A DNA stretch of 64,000 nt from an uncultured Nitrososphaeraceae archaeon (GTDB lineage Archaea; Thermoproteota; Nitrososphaeria; Nitrososphaerales; Nitrososphaeraceae): contig CAVXZB010000084.1 of the NCBI GenBank assembly GCA_963765895.1, positions 192,001-256,000 on the forward strand, in the 5' to 3' direction. Made by a program: the position numbers and the translations under genes. Under the pieces are notes generated by a model. That model had not been told where the DNA came from. It ran no database searches and saw nothing but the letters and a program-made list of their open reading frames with translations. Below, piece after piece: positions 7,647-61,147 of this stretch; the stretch's first letter is position 1; each line of letters starts with the position of its first letter.

Positions 7647-8790
7647 TTGAAAATATTACACCTGTCTCATGAAGGTCTACCAGATTGGCGGGTCGAAAAA
7701 TCAGCAATTACGGCTACGAGGCATGGTCATCAGGTCATTTTCTGTGGTAAAGGATCAAATTATAAAACGACACTTTTCCAAAAAATCTATCAAATCAATT
7801 GGAATGCAAAAGCAAGGTTCGGAGTTCCCCTATACTGGAAATCGGTAAAGCGACAACTAGCTAAAGTCTTAGATGAGACAAGACCAGATATTGTTCATGC
7901 ACACAATATTTTTTCAGCGAGAATGATTTCGGAATTTAAACTCCCATTTGTCTACGACGATCATGAATTCTGGTCCGCATCTTCAAGACTACTTAATGAA
8001 ATGAAGCCGAAGTCAGACGTTGTTACGAAATCCAAGACGTTGGGTCGCAATTTCCTCGAACTGGCTACTGGTACTCGAAAAAAAATCGTGAATCGCTATG
8101 CCATAAAATTATGGGCCAGATGGGAAAAAGAAATCGTTTGTTCAGCGCCAACTATCACAGTTTCTGATGCTAGTTCTAACGAGATGCGAAAATTAGGCTC
8201 GAGCAAACTGTTTGTTGTGCCGAACTTTCCTCTGTCGTCTGAAACAAGTAATATTGAAGGTCCACGATATCATCAATTTTTATCATCGGTGTATGCAGGC
8301 GAGCGATGGTCTCAATATCGATAGATATCCTCATCGAAATATGACCGGCTTTACCGACGTTTTTGAAACCAATGGAATAGGAACCCTTACAGTATTAGGA
8401 TGGAAAAATAATTCAACGGATAGAGTAAAGTACAAAGGATACTTATCGAGACAAGAGATGTTTAATGAAATGTCCAATCATTCGATAGGTCTACTCCCAT
8501 GGAGGAAACATTGGGCTCACTTCTTTACTAATCCCAATAAACCATATGAATATGCTCATGCAGGGCTGTTTGTCATGTGTTCTTCCTCTGTTCAGCCTGT
8601 CATTAGAACACTTCAAGATCATTGCTCTGTATTCGACGACTATGATGAGATGGTTTCTCAACTATTATATTTCAAGAATCACTTGGATTTGCTCTATAAG
8701 AAAAGACGAGAGTCATATAGATTTGCTAAAGCTAATATAATCTGGGAGAAGCATGAAAATAATATACTCCAAGCATACCAACTTTCTTAG
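7647..8790 (+). CDS. glycosyltransferase (GT4-like), split by a +1 frameshift at about 8301 (probably artefactual)
   Basis: RPDIVHAHN and VYDDHE in the first ORF, PNKPYEYAHAGL in the second; deleting G8301 gives VYAGSDGLNIDRYP. Confidence 0.8.
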
Positions 8791-9065
8791 CGCTTGTTTC
8801 GTGGCTCATTAAATCCAGAATTACACAAATTATAGTTTGAAATTAGATCATATCTCCATAGAATTGAAATAAATCATTCCAGCACCAACTATTGATTTCG
8901 ATTTTGAAGATGTCTATAATATAGACTTGTCAAATTGGACATCTATTAAGCAGCCTTGAATTAACTCAATTCGAATTTGAATCCCAGGAGAGGTGTATAC
9001 CATCGATTTATCGAGATAGAAGAAAGAACTTTAAAATTGATGTTATTCGCTGGTTCTATAACTAA

Positions 9066-9921
9066 TTGGGCAGTTATTTCGCAATTGTTACTTCGAGGAA
9101 TTCAGAAAATGGGATCAAGTCGGCACTCCTCTCGCTAAAGAATCAAGCATTGGGCCCCGAATACGTCATAGTAATCGATGATGGCTCTAAAGATAGTACA
9201 CCGGAAATTCTTAAGGAATTGCAACAAAGCTGGAGTGAGCTATTCATAATAACAAACCCCGATATGGGTTATAATATCAGTAGGGTAGTGAAAAACTGGA
9301 ACGCGGCGTTAGAACTCGTGAAAAATAGAAATATGGTAAGAACAGATTATCATCTTATTGCCACAGATGATACCGAGTACGCTCCGGATTATGCTTTTAG
9401 GCTGATTTCTTATTTAGATTCTAATCCCGAGGTCGCCATAGCATCGGGCAACTATACAAATCATAAACCAGAAATGCCACATGGCGCCGGTAGATATGTA
9501 CGAAATACTGTATTTGAAAAGACAAGGTGGAAAGGAAGTCTATCCTGAGCAAATGGGCTACGAGTCAGCTATTTTGTACGAAGTGGAATTTCTTGGTTAC
9601 AAATATTCTGTAATCGAAGAGGCGAGATTTCGACATCTCAGGCCTCTAGGTTTAAATCATCGCTTTTACGAGTTCGGCGCTACTATGCATACGCTTGGAT
9701 ATCATCCGGTGTATGCATTAGGAAGATTTGCGAAGTATTTTTTAACCGGCACGGTCACAGGGCGACTTGGATCATTATACATGATCTATTATTACCTGAC
9801 ATATAGGGCAGAAATCCGAGGTTATAACCGTCTTTATGATACCCAACTCAGACAGTATGTAAGAAAGAAACAGAGCGATAGAATAAAAAGAATACTCAAT
9901 ATGAGAATACTCAAGAAGTAA
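9066..9921 (+). CDS. family 2 glycosyltransferase, split by a +1 frameshift at about 9537
   Basis: VIVIDDGSKDST and ATDDT; deleting one A at 9536/9537 gives WKGVYPEQMGYES. Confidence 0.8.
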
Positions 9922-10003
9922 CTAAGATCGTGACTATACCATGGCAGGGTGATAAATTATTTAGTATAGGTTGGAAGGTCACTAGATTTTTATATCTTAT
10001 ATT

Positions 10004-13537: not shown

Positions 13538-15008
13538 ATGGAAGTAGAACCTAATCGCATTGGTCAGTTTCCATTTCGAATGTCAGATCCTGAAAAGAGA
13601 AAAGAGGATTTTTCCGAAGTACAACAACCCTACACCAAAGAGGAAGTTATGAAAGAGACTGAAAGATGTTTGTTGTGTGGAACGCCTGTTGTATAGATGC
13701 ATGCCCCGTTTTAATGGATGTTAGGGGTATGAATGAAGCCGTAGCCCGGGGCGACTTCAAGAAAGCACACGAACGTATAAAGGAAACTAATTCACTTTTG
13801 GGCGTAACAGCTAGATGCTGCCCTCAGCTACAGGGCCTGTGTGAGGATGCATGTGTATTGCGTTGGAGCGGCCAGTCTATTGGGATTGGATTAATTCAAA
13901 GATACATTGCAGATTGGGAACAAAAGCAACAGAATAAGGAAAAACCATCAATGTTGACAGATACCAACAAAACAATAGCAATAATTGGAGCTGGACCTGC
14001 GGGGATAGCGGCAGTGAGCTTTTGAAAAGATACGGACATCATGTACTAATCTACGAGGAACTAAAGACACCTGGCGGGACAGCTTGGTACCGCATACCTG
14101 ATTATCATCTCCCAAAGGATGTATTACTTTATGAGATTGAAAGGATAAAGGATATGGATATTGAAATAAAAACTAGTATAAAGATTGGGAGGGATATTTC
14201 GCGGTCCCAATTGAAAGAAGAAAATAATGCTATCCTAATTACTACTGGTTCTAAAGATACCAATAAACTCGATACTCCAGGTATTGAATTGAAAGGAGTA
14301 ATTGACGGCTACCAGTTTTTAGAAGATGTATTCAGAGACGGAATTGATAACTATCTAAGAAAGACACCTCAAAAATATCATCTGGGAATCGATGTTATAG
14401 TAGTTGGTGGTGGGGACACGGTGCTAGATTGTGCAAGAACAGCGCTTAGATTAACTCAAGGCAATATTATGATAGCATACAGATGGACTGAATATGATAT
14501 GCCGGCTGATCCCATAATGCTTCAGGAAGCTAAGGAGGAAGGGATAGAATTTGTATTTCTTGCTGAACCAAAGGCATACCAGGGCCACGATGGAAGCGTC
14601 ACTTCAATAATTATGAACAGGATGCTACTCGGAGCACCCGATCATAGCGGTCGCAGAAGTCCGGAACCAATTTCGAATCAGGAATTTAAAATGGAATGTT
14701 CTAGTGTACTGCTAGCAGTAGGACGGGAACAGGATTCCTTCATACAAACAAAGGCTGGAATTAAAACCAGTAAACATAAATCAATTGCAGTTGATAATCA
14801 ATATAAAACTTCAATGAAAGGAGTCTTTGCCGCCGGTGACGTGACCACTGGAGAAACGCTTGTGGTGAAGGCAATGTCATCGGGTAGAGAAGCTGATCAG
14901 AGAATACATGAATACTTAATGAATTTAGAAGAAAATCATACTTCCTTCTACGAAAGATATTACAAGGAAAACTTTTATGATAGGATGCTAGAAGGCGGTA
15001 AGGCTTGA
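13538..15008 (+). pseudogene. glutamate synthase beta-chain/SudA-like NADPH-dependent Fe-S flavoprotein, disrupted
   Basis: ATG 13538 reads MEVEPNRIGQFPFR...ERCLLCGTPV; shifts at about 13690 and 14015; CIDACP, RCCPQ..LCEDAC, GAGPAG, GGGDT, FAAGD. Confidence 0.75.
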
Positions 15009-17021: not shown

Positions 17022-17828
17022 ATGAAACGAACTATAATGACGTACACCATAGCAACAATAGTGTCATTGGCGGCAATAGGAGGACTAATATTTCAACCAT
17101 CATCACAAATGGCACAAGCGCAGACAATACCACCAGCAGCAGGGCCGGTTGTAACTAATCCTACTTGCGGGGATCGTGTCACCGGAGTTGTGACTCTAAC
17201 TTCAAATCTTGTGTGCGCTGGGGACGGCATAATCGTAGGTGCTGATAATACAGTAATAAACATGAATGGATATTCGATTAAGAACTCTGCAAGCGGAACA
17301 TCTAACAATAAAGTGGGAATCATGGTACCAATGTATGATAACGTTGTGATCAATGGTCCAGGAACGATAAGTAACTTCCAAGCTGGGATATTAGCAACAG
17401 GAGCTAGTCACTTGAGCGTATCAACAGGCGTAATATTATTGAATAACGAAATAGGCGTATTTATGACAGGTGCAGATCACGCACAATTGGCGATGGACTT
17501 GTTCCTATCAAATAACATAGGATTTGCTACTCATTCCGTAAGCGACCTTGCCTTAAAGAGCAATACCTTCTCTAATAATAGACTAGCAGGTATAACCTTG
17601 GTTAACACACATGGTGCTACATTAGATACAAATAATGTTCAAGGAAGCGACAATGGCATATTCACAGACTCACAGAGCGAAGGCAATCATATAGTAACAA
17701 ACTCAATGAAACAAAATAAAATAGATATCAACAATGCAAATGGATTACCGTCAAATATTAACTCAAACCAATTCGTCGGAAATAACTGTGATACTAGCAA
17801 CCCATCTGGTATATGCATTGCAAAGTAA
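17022..17828 (+). CDS. secreted right-handed parallel beta-helix (NosD/pectin-lyase-like) protein
   Basis: Signal peptide, 'TLTSNLVCAGDGIIVGADNTVINMNGYSI', repeated N-x-GI units. Confidence 0.8.
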   Translation: MKRTIMTYTIATIVSLAAIGGLIFQPSSQMAQAQTIPPAAGPVVTNPTCGDRVTGVVTLTSNLVCAGDGIIVGADNTVINMNGYSIKNSASGTSNNKVGIMVPMYDNVVINGPGTISNFQAGILATGASHLSVSTGVILLNNEIGVFMTGADHAQLAMDLFLSNNIGFATHSVSDLALKSNTFSNNRLAGITLVNTHGATLDTNNVQGSDNGIFTDSQSEGNHIVTNSMKQNKIDINNANGLPSNINSNQFVGNNCDTSNPSGICIAK

Positions 17829-18192: not shown

Positions 18193-18707
18193 ATGATGAA
18201 TAATAAACAACAGGTGAGTTATCGATTATTCTCCACACTAGCCGTTCTAAGTATTCTAATCGGATCAGTGGTTATACTAAATCATAACACACTTTTTCAA
18301 AGGGTTTTTGCACAACAGACAAATAATTCCACCGTTCGCCAAACTCCAGGTAAGTCACCTGAGGATTTGGTAAATTCTCTCATGTCTCCAAAATCTCTTA
18401 TGGAATCAGTTATTAACCAAACTCGTAATACTAACGCGACAAATTTTGCCGCGAAGCAAATTCTTTCTAAAGTAAATGTGACTAATAGTACAGCCGCTGG
18501 TATGAATGGGACGAATAGTACAGCCCGCTGGTATGAATGGGACGAATAGGTACAGCCGCTGGTATGAATGGGACGAATAGTACAGCCGCTGGTATGAATG
18601 GGACGAATAGTACAGCCGCTGGTATGAATTCTGTCATACAGAAATTACAGAATACTAATGCGACAAATTTTGCCACTCATGCCATTATCGACGCAATTAA
18701 GAGATAG
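18193..18707 (+). CDS. secreted protein with NSTAAGMNGT tandem repeats (two +1 insertions in the repeats)
   Basis: Signal peptide ending VFAQ; removing the extra C (about 18525) and G (about 18550) reads through to ...MNSVIQKLQNTNATNFATHAIIDAIKR* at 18707. Confidence 0.7.
18484..18629 (+). repeat. 30-bp coding tandem repeat, about 4.8 copies
   Basis: Unit AATAGTACAGCCGCTGGTATGAATGGGACG at 18484, 18514 (+C), 18545 (+G), 18576 and partial at 18606. Confidence 0.95.
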
Positions 18708-25300: not shown

Positions 25301-25316
25301 TTAGTCGGCTTTATCT

Positions 25317-45196: not shown

Positions 45197-45539
45197 TTAT
45201 TCTGACCCCCTTGCCCTCGGGATAGGATTGGGTAAGATCTGCGACAGTTACGATCTTTCCCCCACAATCATACAGTTTTTTAGCAGCTTTTAGAGACATT
45301 GAAAAAGCACATACAGTGAGTTTATGATTAATCTTGCCTGACCCAAGAATTTTACCCGGAACAATAATAGTTTCCCCTTCTTTAGTAACGCTTGCCAGTT
45401 TGCTAATATTAACTTCACTTGCGCGTGATCTCGAATTCGCAAGCTTATTCTCGAGATGCTTCCAAATTGGGGCCCTCTTGGATTTGAAAGCCTTCCGAAG
45501 AACCCATGTAGTCTCACTCGACATACTTTTAGTAATCAT
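45189..45539 (-). CDS. rpl18e: 50S ribosomal protein L18e
   Basis: APIWK, EVNISKL, IVPGKILGSG, AFSMS..A..K. Confidence 0.95.
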   Translation of the reverse strand: MITKSMSSETTWVLRKAFKSKRAPIWKHLENKLANSRSRASEVNISKLASVTKEGETIIVPGKILGSGKINHKLTVCAFSMSLKAAKKLYDCGGKIVTVADLTQSYPEGKGVRIIG

Positions 45540-45582
45540 AAGCGATCAGTCGTCAATCGTATTTAATCATAAATAAATGTAT

Positions 45583-46239
45583 TCAAATTCTCCTAGATAT
45601 TTCTAAGGATCTGATAACTTCATCAAAGTTTCTTATTTTTGAATCTAATCTCTCTATTGCAGCCGTAATTGTCTCTTGGGCCGTTAGCGCCCCATTCGTC
45701 TCGACCGTCAAAATAGACTCATTTTCATCTTTCCCATCTATCACAACTGACGCTGATGTAGGCTGCCACTTTGCATGATCCTTTCCAAAGCCCAATCTAG
45801 CATAAGCTTCGAACTTTATCTTTTGGGCAGGTGCAAGAACTATAATTGGAATTGCCGTACTTATCGGCTTTACTACCTCATCTTCAGACACCAGGTCACC
45901 AGACGTGACCACTTTAGTCTTATCATTAGCTTCTGAGTCCATAGAGAGTAACACCCTGCACTTAGAGCAACCCAAAGTACTATTGCAATCACAATCGTGA
46001 GGTAACACGAATCTATGTAAGTCAGTTCGTAATGGAATAAGGCCCAACCTGTGGGCTACAGCTTCATCATGCATCACTGACGAGTTTTCTAGAATTACGA
46101 CGTCATCAATGGCCAAGGTAGGAACTTCGTTTATAGATAACCTTCTTATCGCATTTACATACTGTCTCGGTGCGTTAATGAATCTTATGACAACCTTATC
46201 ACTAACGTTTTCAAGTATTTCAATAGATGCTGAAGTCAA
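45583..46239 (-). CDS. rpoD: DNA-directed RNA polymerase subunit D (Rpo3)
   Basis: NAIRR...EVPTLAIDDV..ENSSV..DE..AHRLGLIPL, Cys cluster, GKDHAKWQP. Confidence 0.96.
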   Translation of the reverse strand: MTSASIEILENVSDKVVIRFINAPRQYVNAIRRLSINEVPTLAIDDVVILENSSVMHDEAVAHRLGLIPLRTDLHRFVLPHDCDCNSTLGCSKCRVLLSMDSEANDKTKVVTSGDLVSEDEVVKPISTAIPIIVLAPAQKIKFEAYARLGFGKDHAKWQPTSASVVIDGKDENESILTVETNGALTAQETITAAIERLDSKIRNFDEVIRSLEISRRI

Positions 46240-46623
46240 GCCTTAATAAATCCATTCAGTACGTATTAAAAATCTACCGAAAGTTATACACCGAAGCTGT
46301 TAACATATAAAAATTATAGTCAATTTACATTATTATTTAAATGATATCCAAGCTACGTTTGACAATCTGTGATATAATTCTCCGATGGGATGAAGTTGTT
46401 TATCCATAAATTAAAGTTATTTTTTCATCTTATATTACTAGTTAATATTTTACACTGTTTTCTGTCTATAAGGAAACCATATTTAGTTTACATGGATAGA
46501 TAATATTGTAAAATACATATTTTATGATTAACGTCTAATAGAATAAAAGAAATCATATTTCTAAAATATATTATGTTATGTTATAATATTTTTTATATTT
46601 CCTCCTACGTGGAAAGCCTTATA

Positions 46624-48148
46624 ATGTATGTGAAAACGATGGGAACAGCTGTTTTATTTGTAGGTATTTTCGTTGGCCTGATCGCATTATTGATAACTAG
46701 TACAGTTAGCAATGTACTGGCTCAGCCCGCATATCCGCGTACTGAGAACTACACAAAATCTAGTCCTGCAGTACCATACAGTTGCTTCAAGCATGTGGGT
46801 GTAAGCGCCGAGACACCTAATGGAGACAAAACAAAGCCATTGTTGGTAGATAAGGATGGAAACCTGACACCATGTGATATAAATGAAGGAGATAACGCCT
46901 GGATGTTGGCAGCTTCTGCACTTGTGCTGATAATGACTCCAGGCGGACTCGCAATATTCTATTCTGGTCTTTCTAGACAGAAAAATGCTGTAAATACACT
47001 TCATATGGTATTCATAGCAACTGGCGTAATAGCGATACAGTGGGTTTTATGGGGATATAGTTTAGCTTTTGGACCTGACGCAATGGGCAATGGTTTCATA
47101 GGAAATTTTGCTTGGGTCGGCTTACAAAATGTTTTGCATGATGTTCCATCAGACGTTTACGGAGGCCTAGCAGGACCAACCATACCTCACCAAACGTACA
47201 TGATATTCCAAATGATGTTCGCTATTATCACTCCTGCTCTTATTGTCGCGGCACTCGCAGAAAGAATGAAATGGAGCGCATTTTTGGTCTTTATAGTGCT
47301 CTGGGCCACATTTGTCTACGATTTTGCGGCTCATTGGACATGGTCACTGGGATCTGGCGGAACACATGTCGGATGGACGGGAGCGCTACCATCGTTGGAC
47401 TTTGCAGGAGGAACAGTAATCCATGTGACTTCTGGTTGGTCTGGACTGGTTATTGCGCTCATGCTCGGGAGGAGGTTGGGATATGGCAAGATTCCAATGG
47501 AGCCTCACAATCTAACACTCATCGGTACTCGGAGCTGCTCTACTATGGTTTGGATGGTTTGGCTTTAACGCAGGTTCCGCAGCTTGGGCAGGAACAAATG
47601 CTACGAGTGCATTTGTTGCCACGCAAATTGCAACTGGCATGGCCGCTGTGACATGGATGTTAATTTCGTGGGCCCATACAGGTAGAGCGTCGACTGTTGG
47701 TGCAGCATCTGGTGCTGTGGCAGGCTTGGTAGCAATCACTCCCGCATCTGGATATGTTGGACCTATGGCATCAATCATCATTGGAATAATTGCTTCCATT
47801 GTTTGCTATGCAGCAGTCATGTTTAAGAACAAACGCAAATGGGATGATGCCCTCGATACCTGGGGGGTTCATGGAATGGGCGGTCTTGTTGGGGCACTAC
47901 TAACTGGAATCTTTGCCCAAAAGATGTATACTCCGATCGCTAATGGACTCGCATTTGGAAATCCACAGCAATTATTGAATAACGCAATCGGCGCATTTGC
48001 AGCGCTTGCTTGGTGTATGGGAATCACTGCCGTTATAATAAAGGTCATGGACGTTGTGTGGCCAGGGGGAATCAGGGTTACTCCAAAGGAAGAAGAGATA
48101 GGGTTGGACTTGACCCAACATGGAGAAAGAGCATACGTTACAGAGTAA
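46624..48148 (+). CDS. amt: ammonium transporter Amt (+1 frameshift at about 47524)
   Basis: AWMLAASALVLIMTPG, FQMMFAIITPAL, DFAGGTVIH, AGLVAITPASG, DDALDTWGVHG, EEEIGLD..QHGE; deleting one G restores LIVLGAALLWFGWFGFN. Confidence 0.95.
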
Positions 48149-48248
48149 CTTTCCCATTATTTTATTAACAAATAGGCCGGTTGCTTGAATATCTCGCGGA
48201 GAGACAACCAAGTATATATTTTTATTTTAGAGTAGATTTTACTAATTA

Positions 48249-48941
48249 GTGCCAGAGAGTAAGTTTAGTGTAGTTCGACTGATTTTTGGAAATAATAAAT
48301 TTGAAATATTGGTGAAGCCTGATCCCGCTCTAGAGTATAAACTCGGCAAAATACACGATCTCTCAAAGGTCCTTGTTTCCGATGAAATTTATACCGACGC
48401 AAACAAAGGATCAAGGGCGAGTAGCGACAAGCTATCAAAATATTTCAGGACTTCCGATCCAATGGAGGTAGCAAAACAAATTCTTCTTCGTGGCGAGCAT
48501 AGTCTTACAACTGAACAACGTAGAAGGATGATAGAAGAAAAGAAAAAGCAGATTGTTCATTATATTAACAGAAATTTTGTTGACCCAAGAACACATTTGC
48601 CACATCCACCCCTTCGAATTGCTAGCGCAATGGATGAAGTAAGAACTGTAATCGACCCATACAAGAAGGCTGAAGACCAAGCAAAAGTTGTAATAGATGC
48701 TGTCAGAAAGATTTTGCCCCTTAAATCAGAAAACGTCATCCTGACGATTACTGTACCGTCTTCATGCGCAGCCCAGTCTTATAGCGCACTGAAAAATGCT
48801 GGTAGTCTTAAGGAAGAGCAGTGGCTTGCCGATGGTTCGCTAAAATTATTAATAGAAACCAATGCCGGAATGAAGGGGGATTTATTGGACAGAATTGGAT
48901 CTATAACAAGAGGTACCGCTTCGATAACTGAGCAATTATAA
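48249..48941 (+). CDS. ribosome assembly factor SBDS
   Basis: KFEILVKPD, IYTDANKG, LTTEQRR, DPRTHLPHPP.RI. Confidence 0.95.
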   Translation: MPESKFSVVRLIFGNNKFEILVKPDPALEYKLGKIHDLSKVLVSDEIYTDANKGSRASSDKLSKYFRTSDPMEVAKQILLRGEHSLTTEQRRRMIEEKKKQIVHYINRNFVDPRTHLPHPPLRIASAMDEVRTVIDPYKKAEDQAKVVIDAVRKILPLKSENVILTITVPSSCAAQSYSALKNAGSLKEEQWLADGSLKLLIETNAGMKGDLLDRIGSITRGTASITEQL

Positions 48942-49053
48942 CAAAATTCAATCGTACAATTAACATATAAGTCCCCTCCTATAGACCAAATGCAGAGAAT
49001 GAAAACATTCATTTCATATGAACTTAGTGAAGAGTGGGTGACCTGTTAGGATC

Positions 49054-49830
49054 ATGCAGGAAATCAAACGAAAATATGTAGTTCCTGGTGATAAAATTAT
49101 AGAGGGTAACTTTAGACCTTTAATGAATGTGATTAAAACAGGCAATGCGATTATTGCAACGAGGATAGGAATTGCAGAGGCTGGTAGAGATGGGATCAAG
49201 GTTATACCGTTATCTGGCGTTTACATTCCGAGAGTAAACGATATCGTGATAGGAAAGATTACAGATCATTCATCCTTATCCTGGGAGGTAGACATAAATT
49301 CATGTTTTTCTGCTCATCTTCCTGCCCAAGATGTTTTCGGGAGGGATTTTTCTCCTGCGAGGGATGATATGAACAGGCAATTAGCAACAGGAGATCTAAT
49401 TACTGCACGGATTATCGCATTTGATCGAACAAGAGATCCAATGCTTACTGTTCAAGATAAAGATTTAGGAAAAATTGCTCGAGGTGAATTGCTAAAAATA
49501 TCTGCAACACGAGTTCCACGTCTTATAGGTAAGCGAGGATCAATGATTCAGACGATTGAACAAGCTACGCAAACTAGAATTATGATTGGTCAAAACGGAA
49601 TCATTGTCGTCATGGGTAAGCATTTAGATGGGACGCAATTAGCCATTAGGGCTATCAAAATGGTTGAGGAAGAAGCACATATGTCAAATTTAACACAGAG
49701 AATCAAGATTTTGCTCAATGTGTCGGATGGTTCTCAGGTCGACGTCCATGCAAATCAACCACAGGAGAATCAGAAGGAATCTACCTTAAAAGTTGATGAA
49801 TCCGAACCCGAGTCGGAGATAGGACAATGA
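49054..49830 (+). CDS. rrp4: exosome RNA-binding subunit Rrp4
   Basis: [16 protein letters not shown] (S1), [12 protein letters not shown] (KH), GQNG. Confidence 0.95.
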
Positions 49831-50570
49831 CCCAAACAAGAAATTTAATTGATGCCAGGGGGTTACGAACTGATGGCCGAACTCCAGATGAATTGCGCGA
49901 GATTAAAATACAGATAGGAGTAGTGAAAAATGCAGATGGTTCTGCATTTATAGAATTTGGTAATAACAAGATTATAGTTGCGGTGTATGGTCCACGAGAA
50001 GTACATCCCAAACACATGGCGTTGCCTGATCGATGTGTGCTGAGGTGTAGATACCACATGTCCCCATTCTCGACTGACACGCGTAAAAATCCTGCCCCAT
50101 CTAGGAGAGAGGTCGAAATCTCAAAAGTCATGAGAGAATCACTCGAACCGGCCTTAATGTTAGAAGATTATCCCAGAGCAGCAATAGACGTTTTCGTTGA
50201 AGTATTGCAAGCGGATGGTGGATCAAGATGTGCAGGAATCACTGCTGCTTCTGTAGCTCTTGCAGATGCTGGAATAAATATGAGAGATATTGTAACGGCT
50301 TGTGCAGCAGGTAAAGTTGACGAAAGGATTGTCCTGGATATAAACGACACCGAAGACAAGGAAGGCGGAGCTGACATGCCAGTAGCGTACATGCCTCATT
50401 TGAACCAAATTACCCTATTACAACTAGATGGTATATTAAGCAGTGATCAGTTTAAAGAATGCTTAGATAAAGCGTTGAATGGCTGTAAGTTGATCTATGA
50501 AATTCAAAGATCAGCATTGATGAAGAAGTATTTCGGAAGCGAATCTGAGGAGATAAGAGACGAACAATGA
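49827..50570 (+). CDS. rrp41: exosome exonuclease Rrp41
   Basis: RTDGR..DELR, ADGSA, VYGPRE, YHMSPFS, QADGGSR. Confidence 0.96.
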
Positions 50571-51394
50571 GTTCTTCCAAGCGATCTACGCTAATTGTAG
50601 AACATCTGCGAAAACAACAGATGTGGGACGCCATTTCGAAGGGTAAGAGACTTGATGGCAGGAATTTAGATGAATTAAGAACGCTAAACATTGAACTGGG
50701 TATTATAAAGAAAGCAAATGGATCTGCAAGAGTAAGTCTGGGCAATTCTGAAGTAGTGGCTGGAGTAAAGGTTGAAACTGGTGAGCCTTTCGAAGGATTA
50801 GAAAATAAGGGTGCATTGATTGTCTCCGCAGAAGTACTCCCTACTGCTTCTCCATTTATCGAGCCTGGTCCACCTGACGAAGAAACTGTAGAATTAGCAA
50901 GGGTAGTTGATAGAGGAGTTAGAGAATCTGAAATGATCGACCTAGACAAATTGGCCCTAATTCCGGGAGAAATTGTCTATACAATATTCGTTGATTGCAG
51001 CATAACTAACGCGGACGGGAATTTATTTGATTGCACGTCCTATGCGGTGGTTTCAGCCTTAATGAGTTGCAAACTTCCCGTCTTCGAAATTCAGGACAAC
51101 AAGGTAATCGATACCGGTGCAATAAAATCTACGCCCATTACAACAATACCAGTATCTATAACTGCGGCTAGAATAGGAGATTCAATAATTTTGGATCCAA
51201 CTGCAGAGGAAGAAGCTTGTATGAATGCGAGGATAACTATTACTACTAATTCAGATAATAACTTTACGGCCGTTCAGAAGGGCGCTACCGGAACCTTTAC
51301 TAGCGAACAAATTAAGAATCTTTTGGATACTGCTAGGGTAAAGGGAGAAGAAGTAAGAAGTAAAATAAAGGAGACGACAAGAATTGGTGAGTAG
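50567..51394 (+). CDS. rrp42: exosome subunit Rrp42
   Basis: [43 protein letters not shown]. Confidence 0.96.
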
Positions 51395-51608
51395 AAGGAA
51401 GCATAGATCCAGTTCGCTTAAGGGTCTAGGGATCAAGTTTGGTGCGACCGTTCGTAAAAGATATGGCATGGCGTACAAGACATTAAAGGAAAAAAGACGG
51501 TGTCCATCTTGTGGCTCTCTACAATTACATAGAATTGCTTTAGGGATTTGGCATTGTCCAAAATGCAACTATAAAATTGCATCAGGAGCATATGATGTCA
51601 ATTTATAG
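51384..51608 (+). CDS. rpl37ae: 50S ribosomal protein L37ae
   Basis: KFGATVRKR, CPSC, GIWHCPKC, SGAY. Confidence 0.93.
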   Translation: MVSRRKHRSSSLKGLGIKFGATVRKRYGMAYKTLKEKRRCPSCGSLQLHRIALGIWHCPKCNYKIASGAYDVNL

Positions 51609-51858
51609 AAATTTCAAAACTGAAATGACCTTTTCTTTCGATCCTGTTTGTCCTAAATCAGATGACATTGCCAAATCTCTCTGTTTGTCGTTGAAATCAG
51701 ACACTCGATCCGAATCAACGAATACTGAGAGTAAATTTGCGGTAAGAGATTCAAAATTACTTATTCAAATATCGACAACAAATATCGCTGATTTAAGAGC
51801 ATGTGTTAATACTAATCTTAGGCTAACAAATATGGCATATTTATCAATTTTGGATTGA
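51577..51858 (+). CDS. pcc1: KEOPS subunit Pcc1-like protein
   Basis: Conserved position between L37ae and prefoldin; 'LLIQIST..IADLRACVNTNLRL'; start may be ATG about 51594. Confidence 0.7.
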   Translation: MHQEHMMSIYRNFKTEMTFSFDPVCPKSDDIAKSLCLSLKSDTRSESTNTESKFAVRDSKLLIQISTTNIADLRACVNTNLRLTNMAYLSILD

Positions 51859-52246
51859 TAAGAGGAATCGATGTACAAAGTTAAAAAATTCTCGGTACTG
51901 TCTAATTATACTAATAGCGGACCACTTAATCACGAGTATATTTTTGAGTGTATCAAGTGAAATGCTTTACACACGTTAGCTGACAAGTATAACTGGATTT
52001 GACTAGGAAGACTGCTAGGATTGTCAAATATCTTGAGGGTATTGAACCAAGAATGGCGTCTATATTGTTCTCTAGCGCAGTAATCATAACACGATGGTTC
52101 CAAACAACTAACAGATCCATACCTATTTCCCTCAAAATGTTTTTATTAATTGACAAGATTGTCCAATGTATAGATTTTGTATTGCGTAACCCACTTAGTC
52201 GTAAATACACATTTGGTATTTATAATACCATTCACATCATAGTACC

Positions 52247-52645
52247 ATGAGTGAACAAGAACTTCCACCATGGTTAAGAGAACAGGTATCTCGCTTACAA
52301 CAACTTCAACAAAATCTACAATCTATAATGATGCAAAAGCAGCAGGTCGAAATAGAGGCCATGGAAACTGGTAGGGCGATAGATGAGTTAAAAAAAATAG
52401 GTCCAGACGACACTATCTATAAAAATGCCGGACCTCTACTCATTAAAGCAAACAAGGATGAAGTATCAAGAGAACTCGAAGAAAAGAAAGAATTATCAAA
52501 TACCAGATTGATGGTGTTAACAAAGCAAGAAACACGGGTCAAAGATAATCTGAAAGAAGTCGAGGCAAAGATAAACCAAATGATTGCCGGAGCTCAAGGA
52601 ACAATTGGCAGCTCTGTATCTAATTCGAAAAATCAAAACGAATAA
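52247..52645 (+). CDS. pfdB: prefoldin subunit beta
   Basis: ELPPWL, LQQLQQNLQ..MMQKQQ, IYKNAGPLLIK, coiled coils. Confidence 0.95.
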   Translation: MSEQELPPWLREQVSRLQQLQQNLQSIMMQKQQVEIEAMETGRAIDELKKIGPDDTIYKNAGPLLIKANKDEVSRELEEKKELSNTRLMVLTKQETRVKDNLKEVEAKINQMIAGAQGTIGSSVSNSKNQNE

Positions 52646-52748
52646 ATGCCCACCCCTTAACGTGGACTACTCTAAATACGTATTCTAAGGTAATATTCAA
52701 CTTAGAGTCAGTTAGTTATTGGTACAGCTGCTTAACTAATGAATAATA

Positions 52749-53483
52749 ATGTCTGTTAGGATTGTTATCGATGAGAGGGAACGAAACAGCCAAATACCCA
52801 AGTTACTCTTGGATGCAGGAGTTAGGGTCAATTTTGCGCAATTGAAAGTTGGGGACTACATAACTTCAGCCGCGACCGCAATTGAAAGAAAGACCATCAA
52901 CGACCTGATCTGTTCTATATATGATGGAAGATTATTTTTGCAATGTAGTGACTTAAACCAGTTTTATTCCAAACCTGTGCTCCTTATCGAGGGCAACATA
53001 TTGGATCTTGCAGATATTCCAGTTGGAATTACAAATGACAAGCAATTGAAAACCCTCGTTGAAAGACTGCCTCTAGCCTACGAAACACTCTCGAAAATAG
53101 TATTAAATTTTAGAATTCCAATAATACCTACACCATCTGCGGAGTACACAGCCCAATTGCTAATTCTTATGGCAAAAATTGCAAGAGATAAGGAAGACGA
53201 CAATGGTCCATTATTAAGGAAAATAAGGAAGGGAAAACCAGCATATTATCAACAGCTTTCGATTTTATCTTCGATACCAGGCATAGGAGACAAGCTGGCG
53301 ATTAGAATGCTTCAAAAATTCAAAACACCAGACAGAGCATTGAATGCAAGTATTGCAGAGCTCGCGATGGTTTCCGGCTTTGGAACAACACGTGCAGTTA
53401 AAGTAAGAGAAATCCTTGACCGGATGGTTGTTGACGATTTAGATTTTGCGGTGCAGACTACCCTCAGTGACAACGGAAGTTAA
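52749..53483 (+). CDS. xpf: short XPF/ERCC4 structure-specific nuclease
   Basis: IVIDERE, VGDY, IERKT..DL..SI.DGRL..Q, tandem HhH (IPGIG, VSGFG). Confidence 0.92.
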   Translation: MSVRIVIDERERNSQIPKLLLDAGVRVNFAQLKVGDYITSAATAIERKTINDLICSIYDGRLFLQCSDLNQFYSKPVLLIEGNILDLADIPVGITNDKQLKTLVERLPLAYETLSKIVLNFRIPIIPTPSAEYTAQLLILMAKIARDKEDDNGPLLRKIRKGKPAYYQQLSILSSIPGIGDKLAIRMLQKFKTPDRALNASIAELAMVSGFGTTRAVKVREILDRMVVDDLDFAVQTTLSDNGS

Positions 53484-53579
53484 AGCCTTTATTGCCAGAA
53501 TTCGTGAATATAGTTACTTCAAGTCTACCGTTCTACCAAGCCCGATCTCCTTTTTTGCATACATTTTGATAACTTCAAT

Positions 53580-55727
53580 CTAAAGAGATACAGACTGGGC
53601 TTGGAATATCGATGGAGAGTTACAAAAGGGACAATTCGCACTATTCAATGCAGTGGACTTCTTGCCACATGTATTACATATCTTAATCTTTAGCTTGGGA
53701 CGCATGTAATTAAGATTAGAAGCGATTTCTAGCGTCTTTTTTGTGTCTGAAATAGAAGTACTGTTGCTAAAATCGATATCGACAGATAATCCTCCATTAA
53801 GTAGTCTATCTATCGCATTAAATTCCTCTATAGCCCTAATCGTGTCCTCACCGTGCAAAATTTTGGCGCCATCTAGTAACATACCCTGAGAATATATATC
53901 ATACTCCTTCTTTGGTGCAAGTATAAGACTTCGACCATACTTGTCGGAGTCGAGAGTGGCAAATCTAGAAGTACCATGATCGTGTATCATAGCAACTCCT
54001 ATTGTTTCTTCACCTAATTGTTTTCCTTGATCCATTGCCACATCGACTGAAGTCTTAATTACTTTGTGCAATATTTCTGGCCCGTTATTAGTAGCATCGT
54101 GTCCCAGGATATCGTAAACTGCCTCTCTAGCTCCAGCCAGGTTAATTATTATGTTAGCAACCCCTACTTCCATGTATTTGGCGCTACTTGCAACTATTGG
54201 TAGCGTTCCCTTCAGTATCAGATCGGTAATAATTTTCTTTCTAATTGATAACGCCATTAATGCTGGCTTAATTAACATCGCAAGCCGGGCACGAAAATAT
54301 GTTTCATCCTTGTTTGATTGGTAGGCAATTCTGGGAAGATTAATTGAAAGGGATTGCAATGTTATAACTGTGTTCGAAACCTTGTCACCAATGGATTTTC
54401 TAACTCCATTATTAGATCTTGTACCATCTTTAGAAATTGATATGACTCCCCCAAGTCTTATATTAGACGCAACCCTTTCTGAATGAATTCCAAATTTATG
54501 ACTGTTGGGATTGTATATTAATTCGAGGCCAATTCTGGGTATAGGCGTGCATTCAACATACTTTGAATAGCCAACTAGCAAGTCATCAATAAACTTGTCC
54601 TCCAATTCTTCTATAGGTAATATTATCGTCGTGAGAGGTAATCCAGAAATAGAGTAAGATGGGGATGATGAAGCATTCATTAACATTTTAGAAAATAATG
54701 ATGCAACGTTTCCCAGATTATCGGATAATTCTAGCATCTTGTGAGGTACCCCTTCCAATACGATTTCTGTGGAGGCCTCTCTGTTCAAAAGTGAAATCAA
54801 AATCGAAAGTGTGGAAACAAGGTCGTCAGATCTACGTAGGTTCTCGAATCTTGATACGTTCAGGTATTTCCCTTTAAAATTTAAACCGTTTGCACACAGG
54901 TCGTTAACATTGAGAAATATACTATCTGGCATTAGTCCCCAGGTACCGCAATGTGATATGTTTAATTCTCCTGCTAAATGCATATCAGCTAGATCCTTTG
55001 GAAGCACATTATTCAGAAGATGTTCAGAGAATAAGGAATGTGACACCTTAGAAAAAATACTGTCCATTCCATTTTTGAGTTTGTCGACACTAGCTAGCAT
55101 ATCCACTATATCGGAAGTTGGCAAACCTACCCTCGCCAACTTGTTTCGATAATCTTCATATCCATGCTCCACGAGTACGGAGTTCACAGTTTCTCTGATT
55201 AATGACGAGGTGAGATATGCAGTTTGAAATTTATAGATTTTATTTTCAACCTCTTCTGTAATTTTATGGGCTTGTTCGAGGGGCATATTAGCTTCTCTTA
55301 CCAGGGATTGTACTATTTTGTGTGCGTTGAATTCCTCAATCGAATGTCGAGAGGTCCGGACGTACATTTTACCACTCTCAACTATAGATCGTTCTTCGAT
55401 CTGTCGAGCAAGACTCAATACTAGTTTGCCTAAATTAGTAATAGTGTACCTGCGTTCAGACTTATTGAGAGCAACTAAGGATTGTCTTAGGAGCTTTCTC
55501 AAGTGATACGCAAATTTGCCGGACTCCTTTTTGGATTTAAATCCGGCAAGCGATTTTAACTCAGAATACGTAAGCGGTCCTTTAGAATTTAAAATTCTGA
55601 GGATATCAATCCGGTTAGGACTCGCCATAACCGAGAATATCATTCTAACCCTTTTAGTGGCTGATTCTAATACTCCTCCTCGTCTAGATTCAGTTTGAAA
55701 TGAAAATTCATGGCTCAACTGTTCCAT
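53580..55727 (-). CDS. ArsR-type HTH + ATP-cone + class III RNR (NrdD)-like domain fusion, apparently non-catalytic
   Basis: SPNRIDILRIL..GPLTYSELK...FAYHLRKL (wHTH); VRTS...EEFNAHKIVQSL.RE...IRETVN..L (ATP cone); LADMHLAGEL, SINLPRIA; terminal CNTC/CPFC. Confidence 0.85.
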   Translation of the reverse strand: MEQLSHEFSFQTESRRGGVLESATKRVRMIFSVMASPNRIDILRILNSKGPLTYSELKSLAGFKSKKESGKFAYHLRKLLRQSLVALNKSERRYTITNLGKLVLSLARQIEERSIVESGKMYVRTSRHSIEEFNAHKIVQSLVREANMPLEQAHKITEEVENKIYKFQTAYLTSSLIRETVNSVLVEHGYEDYRNKLARVGLPTSDIVDMLASVDKLKNGMDSIFSKVSHSLFSEHLLNNVLPKDLADMHLAGELNISHCGTWGLMPDSIFLNVNDLCANGLNFKGKYLNVSRFENLRRSDDLVSTLSILISLLNREASTEIVLEGVPHKMLELSDNLGNVASLFSKMLMNASSSPSYSISGLPLTTIILPIEELEDKFIDDLLVGYSKYVECTPIPRIGLELIYNPNSHKFGIHSERVASNIRLGGVISISKDGTRSNNGVRKSIGDKVSNTVITLQSLSINLPRIAYQSNKDETYFRARLAMLIKPALMALSIRKKIITDLILKGTLPIVASSAKYMEVGVANIIINLAGAREAVYDILGHDATNNGPEILHKVIKTSVDVAMDQGKQLGEETIGVAMIHDHGTSRFATLDSDKYGRSLILAPKKEYDIYSQGMLLDGAKILHGEDTIRAIEEFNAIDRLLNGGLSVDIDFSNSTSISDTKKTLEIASNLNYMRPKLKIKICNTCGKKSTALNSANCPFCNSPSIFQAQSVSL

Positions 55728-55846
55728 TGCACCGTTATTCTGAATAAATGATTAAAACTCCTTTGTAAATATCTTTTCACTAATGATGTAGTAAATAGTA
55801 AATAGTTAATAATAGATGACAAGTGTTTTGGCAGGTTGTCTAGAAT

Positions 55847-56467
55847 TTAACTCTCTACGAGAACTCTGCCTCCATCGAAAACCTGCTCATTCCTATCTGT
55901 GGATTTTGATCGGACATGGGGGATAGTTTGTGGCACGTCTGGTAGCCTCGCTTTTGCCTCGTCTTCCAAGAGATTTTCTACTTCGTCCAGTATCGAGAGT
56001 GCATCCACATCGACCTTCGTAGGAATGATATTTGAATCCACTTTGACTTTGGAATCAAGTAACACTTCCGACGTTACTGAAGCCATTTCGTTGAAGACTC
56101 CCTTTGCGGTAGGAACGACGTTCCAGATCTCATTCTGTATGTCTTTGATCGTTTCGATGGTTGGATTGATAGTTTCTAAAATTTTTGCAAATTCGTTAAT
56201 CGTACTAAAACGTAAGACGATGACTTCTAATGCTAAACACATATTCTGAGAAATACGATTGACATGATGAATATTTGATAGCTCGTTTGCCATGACTCTT
56301 GCATGGGCGTTATTGCCTTTCTTGAGGTTGCAAGCTATTTTATATCGGAAATCCTTATCAATAAGAGCAATTCTTTTATTAAGCATCTTCAGTTTTGTGA
56401 GCTGATTGCTGACTACAATCGTGGCATCCGTAAGATTACTCTTTATATGCTGTCGATGCTGTTCCAT
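55847..56467 (-). CDS. ESCRT-III/CdvB-like (Snf7) paralogue
   Basis: 'ARVMANELSNI', 'LALEVIVLRFSTINEF...TINP', 'DALSILDEVE...LPDVP' follow the CdvB helical pattern. Confidence 0.75.
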   Translation of the reverse strand: MEQHRQHIKSNLTDATIVVSNQLTKLKMLNKRIALIDKDFRYKIACNLKKGNNAHARVMANELSNIHHVNRISQNMCLALEVIVLRFSTINEFAKILETINPTIETIKDIQNEIWNVVPTAKGVFNEMASVTSEVLLDSKVKVDSNIIPTKVDVDALSILDEVENLLEDEAKARLPDVPQTIPHVRSKSTDRNEQVFDGGRVLVES

Positions 56468-56931
56468 TGGTATTAGTCCTCCACCGAAAAAAAAGATTAA
56501 GAGCTAGTGTTAAGTCGAATGTACAAGCAGCTGTGATAAAGCTAAGCTACTAATATAATGGTTGAAAGAAAAAATTAGGACTTATTCAAGATCATCTATT
56601 GCAGTTATGTCGTTGGTGCATAAGCATATTCCCATAGTAATTTGGTCGATTGACATTCATCTTATAGCCATGCTAGATTTTTTGTTGGGGGCAACGATTT
56701 GATTAATGATCAGACAATGCCACCGTTATCAAGATCTATATATTAATAATAAGCACAGTTACAACGGAATTGGATGCTACAAATGGAATTGAGGTGAATA
56801 ACTAGTCATAAAATCTGACGATTGATACCTCAGAACATTACCTTATGTGAATAACCACTTCCTGCACGATTGTTCTCTTGTGATTTTAAATGCTCTATTC
56901 AAGTACTTTGTGCGATGTCACAAATCTGCAT

Positions 56932-57342
56932 CTATAAGATCAACCGACTAAAGGCTGGAAGAAGATAGAAATTTAGTGAATAATCTCCTATCTGATAGAC
57001 TCCGTTTGCCAAATCTGTGCTACCTGTTTCTATCTCCTTAAACATAACCGTAAAGGATGGTTGTAGTGTAGCAATGACTGCTGATGCACCAACAAATTCC
57101 GCGACTTCTGTAAGCCGTCTTATTTCATAACCCTTTATCCTTGGTATAAGATTACTAGATTTTATCTGAATCAGCCATTTGATCGGATCACGGATTGCAA
57201 CGATGTCAGCTGGCCCTCTGCTGCCTTTGGATATGTTCAATTTCCAGCCTTTTGCTTTAAGAAAAACGGCTACTATAAATTCTGCCTCTCTACCAAACCG
57301 ATAGCTGCAAAATTTTTCGAAGCTCTTTTCTCCTCTGATCAT
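56932..57342 (-). CDS. Hjc-like PD-(D/E)XK endonuclease
   Basis: GREAE..VA.FL..KGW, SKGSRGPADIVA, LIQIKSS. Confidence 0.75.
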   Translation of the reverse strand: MIRGEKSFEKFCSYRFGREAEFIVAVFLKAKGWKLNISKGSRGPADIVAIRDPIKWLIQIKSSNLIPRIKGYEIRRLTEVAEFVGASAVIATLQPSFTVMFKEIETGSTDLANGVYQIGDYSLNFYLLPAFSRLIL

Positions 57343-57618
57343 TAGATGTATACACTAATTCCATACAGATACCCGTATTTGTCCATCAAGTTTGCGTATT
57401 CTATTATTTTATTGCTTTTCTTTGTATTCCCTTACCTATATCATTAGACTCGATCTAAAGGGCCTAATCTGTGACATTTTAATGAAATTTAGTAAAATAG
57501 GATGATATCTTTCTTTTCCTCTCTTCCATCTCTTAACATACCTAGCCTAAGTCTCGTTCACGCAATCTGGTTATTAATACAAATTAGCCAAGAATACGTA
57601 TAAAGATGAAATTTCGAT

Positions 57619-58401
57619 ATGCTGCTGTCCGCCAAATTAAGCCAAGTAATATCTGATGTGGTAAATGCCTCAATGAGGGACAGAGGTCCCATCGCTGTAG
57701 CCTTTTCAGGAGGGATAGATAGCTCATTACTCGCTACTGTATGTAAAAAAAATGGAGTATCTGTGACCCTGTTGACAATCGGCTTTCCGCAGTCACATGA
57801 TGTTTGCTTCTCCCAGCAAATTGCTTCGAAACTCAACCTAGATCATAGGATCAATCTGCTAGAAGAAAATGACTTTTATGAAAATCTAGGGAAAGTGATA
57901 AAAAAAGTGGATTGCGAAAATATCTCGCATATAGAAAACTGTATTGCTTTTTTTTATATTGCTAAATTTGCTCAAGAAATGGGCTTCAAAACCGTATTGT
58001 CTGCGAACGGATGCGACGAGCTTTTTTGTGGCTACGACATTTATAGAGCAACGTTTGACAAAGGTAGAACCCGATTAATGCAATTAATGGAAGAAAAGAT
58101 CTTAAACGAGTTTAGGCTAATCCATGAAATAGACATAACGGTAAACGATTTTGGAGTTAAGATCAGTCAGCCTTTTCTGTCTAATAAGATCATAGCGTTT
58201 TCTCGAGACATTCCTATTGAAGAAAAAATACGTGGGTCTGATGACTATCTCAGGAAACGAATATTAAGAAAGGTAGCACGGCTACTGAATGTTCCAAAAG
58301 AATCTACCATCAAGCCGAAGAAAGCGATGCAATATGGAACGAAAATACATAAGAAAGTCAGAAAATATCTTGATATTATGGTTACGGAACAATATCCTTA
58401 A
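57619..58401 (+). CDS. asparagine synthase C-terminal-domain protein
   Basis: AFSGGIDSSLL, SANGCDELFCGY, QPFL, RKRILR, KPKKAMQYG; no glutaminase domain. Confidence 0.88.
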   Translation: MLLSAKLSQVISDVVNASMRDRGPIAVAFSGGIDSSLLATVCKKNGVSVTLLTIGFPQSHDVCFSQQIASKLNLDHRINLLEENDFYENLGKVIKKVDCENISHIENCIAFFYIAKFAQEMGFKTVLSANGCDELFCGYDIYRATFDKGRTRLMQLMEEKILNEFRLIHEIDITVNDFGVKISQPFLSNKIIAFSRDIPIEEKIRGSDDYLRKRILRKVARLLNVPKESTIKPKKAMQYGTKIHKKVRKYLDIMVTEQYP

Positions 58402-59246
58402 ATTGCTATTCTGTTTCTAGCTTAGATATCAATGATTGTCTTGTATGGGGGTTGCTAGGAAATCCTCCTTAAAGCTAAATAGGATCAGCCAGGAATTCAA
58501 AGAAGCATCATCTACAAATTGCAGTTTTTAGTACTTCTAACACGATTCAGTAAAATCTCATTCAGAAATAGACTCCTAACGATTATCATTTCTTAATATT
58601 AGTAGTTACTTAGAACATAATCAGAGTTACCTAGATTATTCTAAGGTATTACTGGACAATATTATAACTAAACTAAAGGTGTATCCAAACCGCTTCAATT
58701 ACGAATATATCGCATTCTCAATTCGTAATTGACAAAATTTGTGCGCTAGCCAGACTCAATATATGTCGAATAAGGGCGTTATGATACAGAAAGGCCACCA
58801 TTACTGATCTGGGCAAACAATAGGTAGTAGAATTATTTGTCCATAACCAAGTCTAGTCATTCGTAGTTGAATAATATCCAGTTTTTACTTAACTGCTCTA
58901 ATCAATCTTAGAGAGATATTTCAATCAGGACATCTGATCTTAAAAAAACAGATGATTAAACAAGATGAAAATGACATTCTAATTCTGTGTTTGTGGAAGT
59001 GAAATAAGTCATCCCTAAATTTGAGTTGAAGCATTTGATTTAGAATCAAATAATATAATGTAAAAAAATGTCAGTTGCTAAATATATCCTGAAAAAGAAC
59101 AGGACCGGATGCGATCTCCAAAATAGGTTTGCCACCGGCAAAGCATCAGCTTGACGAACAATCCATTATGTATTGCTTCTCTTAGTATATTTGTAACAAC
59201 TGCTAGGCAAGATTATATATGATCGATCTAAATACGATAATCACTT

Positions 59247-59341
59247 GCCGTCGTAGCTCAGCCCGGGAGAGCACTCGACCTTAGATTATAGGGGTGAAGC
59301 TGAAGACCGAGCTGTCGTGAGCTCAAATCTCACCGACGGCA
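59247..59341 (+). tRNA. tRNA-Phe(GAA) with a 21-nt non-canonical intron at 30/31 (59278-59298)
   Basis: GCCGTCG/CGACGGC-A acceptor; CTCG[ACCTTAGATTATAGGGGTGAA]G-CTGAAGA-CCGAG; BHB central helix CACT/GGTG; T arm GTGAG-CTCAAAT-CTCAC. Confidence 0.92.
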
Positions 59342-59677
59342 TGTTAATTGAGTCATATTCAAACGATACGGTAAAAAATGAGGTACTCATAAACAATATT
59401 GAATGAAAGTTGACATAGTAAGACGGCTCTTCTGTAAACACCCGGACAGCTTTTCCTTCAGGACGTACAATGACTTTGATTTTAATGAATATAGTAAATG
59501 TTCTCATTGTGGAAAAGTATTGAGGTTTTTGAGCGGATTTGAAGAGGATATTAGGGGATAAAAATTGAGGAAAAGTATAAGATTTTATATAATAGAACAT
59601 GAATATGGGAAAGTTGTGTTTCTACCAAAGACTTAAATTACTTATATGACAGGGCTAGATATGACGAGCCCGGACAT

Positions 59678-61147
59678 CTAAACATCAGCATACATTGAAA
59701 ATTCGTGCGGATGTGGTCTAATTGCCACTTCATTATGATCTTTAATTTCATTCTCAATTAGCATATCGATTGCATCATCGCCGAAGACAGGTTTCAGAAA
59801 TAATCTATCATTTTCTAATTCTTCATAGGCATCTCTTAGACTTGCAGGAAGTTGTTTGATCCCGAACTCCCTTCTCTTTTTTGCCGTCATTTTAAAGATA
59901 TCTTCGTCAACGGGGGAACCTATTGGAGTTTTTTTCCGAATACCATCTAGTCCTGCAGCAACAATTGCAGAGAACGCCAAGTAGGGATTGCACGATGGGT
60001 CTGGAGCTCTGAATTCAATTCGTTTCATTTTTGAAAATTTCTGACCCTTGTAATGGGCAGGGATCCTGATTATCGCAGATCTATTACCAGTACTCCATGC
60101 TATATACACTGGTGCTTCGTACCCGGGGACAAGTCTTCTATAGGAATTTGTAGTCGGGGCCACTATAGCTGCAAGAGCATAAGCATGATCCAGTATCCCC
60201 CCTCCGAAATAACGCGCTACTTCAGATAATTCAGCATATTCATCATCAGAGTCAAAGAAGAGATTTGTTCCATTGTTCCACAGGCTTACATTAACATGCA
60301 TCCCCGACCCATTGTCAAGCGCAATTGGTTTTGGCATCATAGTAGCTATCATATTATGTTTCTTAGCTATATTTTTGACTATGTACCTTGTAGACTCTGG
60401 ACTGCATCGGCTGCGTTAGTGAGTGTATCGTATCTAATATCGATTTCGCATTGTCCAGCTGTTGCAACTTCGTGATGATGGGCATCACAAATTATTCCGA
60501 AATTGTTACTTAAAATGTCAACACACTCATTACGATAATCCATCAAAGTATCTCCTGGAGCACTAGGGAGATATCCTTCCTTTAGCCTTAATGCATAACC
60601 TACGCCTTCAGTAGACCATGGCGCTTCTCTAGAAGTTATGTTATAGCTCTGACTATGATATGGAGTCATAGTGTTCACCTCTAGTTTATCAAAGACAAAA
60701 AATTCGACCTCTGGTCCCCAGTATGAAGAATTATAGCCCTGATCTCTTACGTACCTTCTCTGCTTTCATAGCAATTGATCTCGGATCCCGACTGAATGCG
60801 AGCCTCTCGGATCCGCCAACTAGGATATCGCAGATTAATCTTGCTGTATAATCTTTTTCGATCCATGGAATCACGGCATATGTTGATGCATCAGGTTTAA
60901 TGATCAAGTCTGATTCATGAATCTCGGTAAATCCGCGAATAGATGAGCCATCAAGTTTCGGAAGTCCAAATTCAAAATCTTCTTTTTGAAACATATTAGA
61001 TGCCATGGTAGTATGGTGGAATCTACCAGTAAGTCCAGTAAACTGCAAGTCCAAAAACTTGATTCGATCATCTTTAAGCCTCTGCATCACATCAGCAGAT
61101 GTAAAATTTGATCGTTCTATCTTACCGTTATTGACTCTATATGGCAA
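59678..61147 (-). CDS. glnA: glutamine synthetase type I (insertions at about 60755 and 60387/60394)
   Basis: LDGSSIRGF..IHESD, GPEVEF, HHHEVATAGQCEI, MPKP..DNGSGMH, NSYRRLVPGYEAP, NRSA.IRIP, RIEFRAPD. Confidence 0.95.

Follow-up and report, generated by a model that had tools for sequence, protein, structure and literature searches.

Single extra bases that split genes in a soil Nitrososphaeraceae assembly: consensus errors at probably methylated words

In a 64,000-nucleotide stretch of DNA from an uncultured Nitrososphaeraceae archaeon (G000:C84:192001-256000, where G000 is the assembly under study; hereafter the window), genes that include those for glutamine synthetase (glnA) and an ammonium transporter (amt) appear split by single extra bases at recurrent short words. 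Two questions follow: are the genes broken in the organism or only in its assembly, and why should the extra bases favour these words? The comparisons reported here show that the split genes are consensus errors of the assembly, not pseudogenes, and point, with a probability of roughly 0.8, to methylation of these words as the cause of the systematic errors. The genome comprises 4.91 Mb in 88 contigs, with approximately 37% G+C, a largest contig of 576 kb and a completeness of 88%. The window carries an archaeal gene set, recognized through Pfam (eIF2-alpha, exosome subunits, Cbf5, SBDS, Rpb3, amt and glnA), and all runs containing its DNA are soil metagenomes.

Extra bases in the window are assembly errors

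The window was aligned to the syntenic loci of two relatives: G004, which belongs to the same genus and shares approximately 96% DNA identity with G000 (95-97% over the window), and G003, at approximately 89% (87-91% over the window). A single extra base was confirmed at 13 of the 14 sites that a sequence-only reading of the window had listed, at 12 of them by absence from the relatives and at 18550 by self-comparison of a repeat. The five extra bases placed next to GTAC, at about 18550, 42983, 47524, 60387 and 60755, were all seen (at 18550, 42982, 47525, 60387 and 60755), as were, in the alignment to the relatives, the five placed in or beside GCWGC or GCCGC (8301, 18525, 30087, 38417 and 42773), three of which (8301, 38417 and 42773) indeed take the identical form GCTCGC/GCGAGC. 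An extra base attributed to GAGTC at 9537 proved to lie in AGCT, at 9539, the nearest GANTC being at 9562; among three sites named as possible, 60394 (AGCT) and 43595 (extra base at 43596) do carry one, but 31430 shows no indel in the alignment to the relatives. The features concerned are as follows.

7647-8324 and 8212-8790: open reading frames (ORFs) of a glycosyltransferase gene (Pfam halves Glyco_transf_4 and Glyco_trans_1_2), split at 8301 by an extra G (GCAGC to GCGAGC) absent in G004 and G003
9066-9548 and 9481-9921: family-2 glycosyltransferase gene, split at 9539 by an extra T (AGCT to AGTCT; AAG-CTAT to AAGTCTAT) absent in G004 and G003
13666-14025 and 14022-15008: pyridine-nucleotide disulphide oxidoreductase gene (Pfam), split by two single missing bases, at 13689 (no motif) and 14014 (in GCAGCT), neither of which the sequence-only reading mentions; one open frame of 1491 nucleotides (nt) in G004
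18475-18629, plus strand: 30-bp tandem repeat of 5.1 copies inside an ORF, two copies being 31 bp long; extra C in a copy at 18525 (GCCGC to GCCCGC), absent in G004 and G003, and extra G before GTAC in a copy at 18550 (AGGTAC), in unaligned repeat, where other copies read AGTAC...GCCGC
28560-30065 and 30058-30675, minus strand: DUF255/thioredoxin-domain gene (Pfam), split at 30087 by an extra C (GCTGC to GCTGCC) absent in G004, where a frame of 2139 nt is open
31406: missing A in an A-run, with no motif link; the indel nearest to 31430
37051: extra base between genes, adjoining GTAC on its 5' side (window ATCTGTAC, G004 AT-TGTAC, G003 ATC-GTAC)
37103-38449 and 38433-38867: PQQ beta-propeller dehydrogenase gene (Pfam), split at 38417 by an extra base (GCTGC in G004 or GCCGC in G003 to GCTCGC)
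42773-43596, minus strand: HtrA-like protease gene (Trypsin_2 and PDZ, Pfam) with pieces within 42425-43762 and three extra bases: at 42773 (GCAGC to GCGAGC), at 42982 (GTAC to GTACC) and at 43596 (GCCG.C to GCCGAC; GGCCGG-TC against GGCCGACTC)
46573-47568 and 47639-48148: amt (Pfam), split at 47525 by an extra G (GTAC to GGTAC)
59631: intergenic extra base with no motif (CAAAGACTT against CAAA-ACTT)
60387-60755, minus strand: three extra bases in glnA (Gln-synt_N and Gln-synt_C, Pfam), which lies in three pieces, 59678-60352, 60379-60678 and 60731-61147; at 60387 and 60755 (both GTAC to GTACC) and at 60394 (AGCT to AGACT; TAG-CTC to TAGACTC), all absent in G004 and G003

In total, 19 window events were listed: 13 frame-breaking single events within long open frames of G004, and six others that consist of two compensating pairs and two events in short frames. 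When the two events in the tandem repeat are added to the 13, 13 of these 15 lie at GTAC, GCNGC or AGCT.

A line of evidence that is independent of the relatives comes from short-read-type contigs of four soil metagenome runs belonging to four studies (X1, X2, X4 and X7), which were compared over window positions 41001-61000; the highest share of sampled words from 38001-48000 found in any run was 0.59. One base is left out at 43595, 60387, 60394 and 60754 in contigs of all four runs, and the base at 42982 is left out by X1 (three contigs) and X7 (one contig), X2 and X4 giving no cover there. Among the contig-difference rows listed, the base is thus left out at five of the seven claimed sites in this range. 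The other two, 42773 and 47525, do not figure among those rows, and evidence there consists of the gap counts of spanning contigs: at 47525, X2 record 10 and X7 record 27 each contain one gap, counts that agree with a left-out base. Certain X4 contigs are identical to the window apart from the left-out bases. The intergenic base at 59631 is likewise left out in contigs of all four runs, and counts as one more consensus error, different in kind from the motif-linked ones. Since both the contigs of these runs and the two relatives are without the extra bases, the frameshifts are consensus errors. The earlier view that glnA and amt are not true pseudogenes therefore holds, the glnA bases being absent from the relatives and all four runs and the amt base from the relatives.

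The same asymmetry extends beyond the window. A genome-wide sample of 80 G004 contigs (562 kb) was compared with G000, to which 357 kb aligned at a mean identity of 95.1%, yielding 562 isolated single-base indels; most of these fall outside long frames of either genome and may be real intergenic differences. Attention was thus restricted to frame-breaking indels, defined as single-base indels that break a frame which, in the other genome, stays open for 150 nt or more to either side. Frames open in G004 are broken in G000 by 54 such indels, of which 46 are insertions, against 8 in the reverse direction, and a control comparison of G004 with G003, covering 18.7 kb of frame interior, gave none.

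Words at which the errors occur

The association with short words, proposed from the window, is borne out genome-wide for GTAC and GCNGC. For 33 of the 54 frame-breaking indels, a GTAC, GCWGC, GCSGC or AGCT word is at most 5 nt away, whereas 5.6% would be expected from coding positions in general (binomial p of approximately 1e-27); nine more lie in homopolymers of at least three bases, runs of 7-8 bases occurring among the sites, and 12 elsewhere. None of the eight reverse cases is at a motif. An unbiased ranking of k-mers around 231 non-homopolymer insertions places GTAC first (23 against 2.85 expected) and, among 5-mers, GCAGC first (23 against 1.93 expected). The specificity is one of exact words: in all aligned DNA, indels are present at 28 of 769 GTAC sites against 109 of 12208 at its twelve one-off variants, and at 43 of 671 GCNGC sites against 69 of 7459 at one-off variants. 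Within the coding interior, where the genome-wide sample and the window were taken together, sites with an indel among all sites of each word were as follows.

GTAC: 11 of 431
GCWGC: 25 of 304
GCSGC: 5 of 151
AGCT alone: 3 of 564
GATC: 2 of 776
TGCA: 0 of 753
CTAG: 0 of 434
GANTC: 0 of 609
Other 4-mers: 120 of 164299 windows

AGCT and GANTC, which had also been put forward, fared less well. As an independent error motif AGCT is weak: it stands at baseline in all aligned DNA (10 of 1006) and is only weakly raised in the coding interior. GANTC was rejected outright, as none of its coding sites carries an indel and the word itself does not occur at 9537.

The same error signature is present in the assembly of a sister species, G005 (100 contigs, approximately 78% DNA identity). 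Using G000 open frames as protein queries, 89 candidate frameshift junctions were detected in 337 kb, 35 of them with high confidence. Around these junctions, enrichment was seen for the 5-mers CTCGC/GCGAG (6 against 0.56), GCAGC (9 against 1.2) and GGTAC (6 against 0.94), and 17 of the 35 windows contain the motifs or GCTCGC/GCGAGC; random coding windows give a mean of 4.4, and none of 2000 randomisations reached 17. In two other genomes of the order, G017 and G015, the numbers of junctions were 0 (in 146 kb) and 2 (in 200 kb), which indicates that these assemblies are accurate and therefore uninformative on cause.

Methyltransferase genes and the probable cause of the errors

The existence of words that are error-prone only in their exact form evokes the question of which enzymes could mark them. 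The sequence-only reading had looked to methyltransferases encoded outside the window, and candidates were indeed found there: a profile search of G000 gave eight PF01555 matches at six places, as well as a single gene of the Dam family, 28 kb outside the window. No C5 methyltransferase (PF00145), no PF02384 match and no DndC was found in this 88%-complete genome, so that the dnd genes suggested as another possibility gained no support. Four of the PF01555 genes, designated C19, C88, C43 and C69 after their contigs, encode TSPPY, the typical motif of N4-cytosine methyltransferases. NCBIfam matches, Protein Data Bank (PDB) matches and source names of these methyltransferases are generic as to specificity.

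The C19 and C88 genes are intact, and N4-cytosine methyltransferases are the best or second-best PDB matches for both. The C19 type occurs in 10 of the 12 family genomes searched, at 72-99% identity, and at 74-78% identity in most of the at least 120 metagenome proteins listed, some of them source-named Nitrososphaera, Nitrosopolaris or Nitrososphaeraceae; its gene lies between the shikimate-pathway genes aroD and DHQS-II, with no recognisable nuclease. The C88 type was also detected in 10 of the 12 family genomes. Its flanking ORFs have no Pfam match, and for that reason a partner nuclease is possible. The C88-type copy of G004 (L262, on G004:C113, aligned to G000:C88:67005) has one base missing inside the gene, that of G000 being intact, and the homologues in G003 and G005 contain stops; in some members of the genus the paralogue may thus be undergoing decay. 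The C43 type is present in six of six genomes of the genus; of the other family genera searched, one has it and five gave no match. Its gene is split in G000 by single extra bases at G000:C43:16827 and 17260, one of which is an A directly before AGCT, and forms an intact frame of 371 amino acids in G004. The C69 gene contains two frame changes; a region on G004:C175 was rejected as its orthologue, with only 72% identity over 225 nt, and the C24 gene was rejected as CcrM, scoring 67.6 bits against a model cut-off of 830 bits.

These genes fit what is known of the order. According to a survey of archaeal restriction-modification (R-M) systems (PMC10609329), persistent orphan N4-methylcytosine (m4C) methyltransferases occur in all complete Nitrososphaerales genomes surveyed, HG10 at GTAC and HG19 at AGCT (8 of 8 each), a Dam-like enzyme, HG3, which places N6-methyladenine (m6A) at GATC, occurs in 27 of 29 Nitrososphaerota, and Nitrososphaeria genomes carry a mean of 4.1 m4C genes. 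G000 shares with these systems the order, PF01555 enzymes with SPPY, their conservation in most of the family genomes searched and a Dam-family gene; it differs in GCNGC, which is not among the motifs reported there. For GCWGC, a second survey (PMC11033074) gives an M.ApeKI-type 5-methylcytosine (m5C) enzyme in archaea and a haloarchaeal m4C motif, HGCWGCK. The core word is the same, whereas here W and S centres are both affected. As no C5 methyltransferase domain was found in G000, an enzyme acting at GCNGC would more likely be of the m4C type.

It can thus be proposed that orphan methyltransferases encoded elsewhere in the genome most likely act on cytosine-N4 at GTAC and GCNGC, with AGCT as a probable further target, and on adenine at GATC. 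The motif words are not depleted (observed/expected ratios of 0.9-1.2), and therefore offer no sign that a cognate restriction enzyme is active. Native DNA would have been read on a long-read platform that works from signal, nanopore being the likeliest; contigs of up to 576 kb, and errors in homopolymers of 7-8 bases among the frame-breaking indels, are indirect indications of this. On such a platform modified words would produce an unfamiliar signal, and the base caller would then tend to add one base, turning GTAC into GTACC or GGTAC, GCWGC into GCGAGC, GCTCGC or GCWGCC, and GCNG-C into GCNGAC. Such a systematic error would persist through consensus and polishing at approximately 3% of all GTAC and 3-8% of all GCNGC words, and genes containing these sites would appear split, with glnA, amt and others intact in the organism. 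There is precedent for this course of events: modification of DNA induces nanopore errors that persist in assemblies (PMC11610603, Genome Res 2024), and the cases described in the available text of that work, like those seen here, involve methyltransferase target words, recur in the same form, remain after consensus and polishing, and are gone when orthogonal data are consulted. Methylation is preferred as the cause because of the exact-word pattern, the m4C marking of GTAC known from the order, the set of enzymes and the immunity of GATC, an m6A word that is not error-prone. It is conceivable that GCNGC is an unreported, genus-level m4C mark of this soil Nitrososphaeraceae genus, with the C43-type TSPPY methyltransferase as candidate enzyme, but this proposal is tentative, its odds falling somewhat short of even.

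Several observations weigh against methylation as the cause. Errors at GTAC occur mainly in GTACT/AGTAC (NGTACT, 12 of 164, with few in other flanks), and this flank dependence implies a component of sequence context. AGCT, reported as m4C throughout the order (PMC10609329), is barely error-prone, and m4C alone therefore does not predict errors. As far as the accessible text of PMC11610603 goes, its cases, from cultured bacteria, are for the most part substitutions (C to T and G to A), and here single-base insertions are seen in an archaeal metagenome-assembled genome. Methylation of GCNGC or GCWGC as m4C in this lineage is not reported in the available portions of the two archaeal surveys, nor was it found by literature search. 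Finally, an error-prone long-read genome of a lineage without these enzymes was sought as a negative control, and none was found among the genomes sampled, G017 and G015.

The first two of these points are those that would be expected if the base caller or polisher simply mishandled GTACT and GCNGC irrespective of modification, a platform-wide artefact that would also give the same forms in the G005 assembly. Nevertheless, an artefact of pure sequence context appears unlikely, on the order of one chance in eight: only exact palindromic words are affected, with one-off variants at baseline, GTAC is a known m4C target of the order, and no general artefact of this sort was found in the parts of the nanopore-error literature available. 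A non-methyl or otherwise unusual modification, such as phosphorothioate or a hypermodified base, would accord with insertion-type errors that differ from the substitutions described for m5C and m6A; it is nonetheless quite improbable, given that the search of the 88%-complete genome found no DndC, the documented m4C at GTAC in the order and the four SPPY-type methyltransferases, which suffice for the motifs. Slightly less credible still is a mixture of strains, in which the assembler would have merged both alleles side by side: the G004 and G003 bases do stand adjacent at 38417 and 37051 (TC and CT), but at most sites the relatives share one base and the window merely has one more, and the exact-motif specificity is left unexplained. 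Real frameshifts, whether as pseudogenes or through programmed frameshifting, have nothing in their favour beyond the assembled sequence and can be practically dismissed, the bases being absent in four independent runs and two relatives and the genes hit including the essential glnA and amt.

Consequences and further observations

Extrapolated, the 54 events seen in 153 kb of coding interior suggest that the public genome probably holds false frameshifts on the order of a thousand, which affect its gene counts and its completeness (88%); split glnA, amt and similar genes should thus not be read as pseudogenes. If methylation is indeed the cause, the spectrum of errors is a pointer to the methylome of an uncultured relative of ammonia oxidisers, in which GTAC agrees with the persistent m4C mark already known for the order and GCNGC would be an additional mark, possibly new for the lineage. 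Setting a long-read genome beside that of a close relative assembled from short reads would then yield candidate methylation motifs without raw signal, and the indel-error spectra of uncorrected long-read genomes could provide a free readout of such motifs across public metagenome-assembled genomes.

Error density varies along the contig: between 47526 and 57617, approximately 10 kb that include the end of amt, SBDS, exosome genes, ERCC4 and an NrdD-like gene, the motifs are present with zero isolated single-base indels relative to G004. The anchor word of the tandem repeat at 18475-18629 occurs once in each of the compared loci of G004 and G003, so that in both assemblies the array has probably been collapsed or is shorter. 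Two pairs of frame-restoring indels relative to G004, at 17559-17566 (2 and 2 bases) and 25290-25302 (5 and 1 bases), look like real divergence rather than errors.

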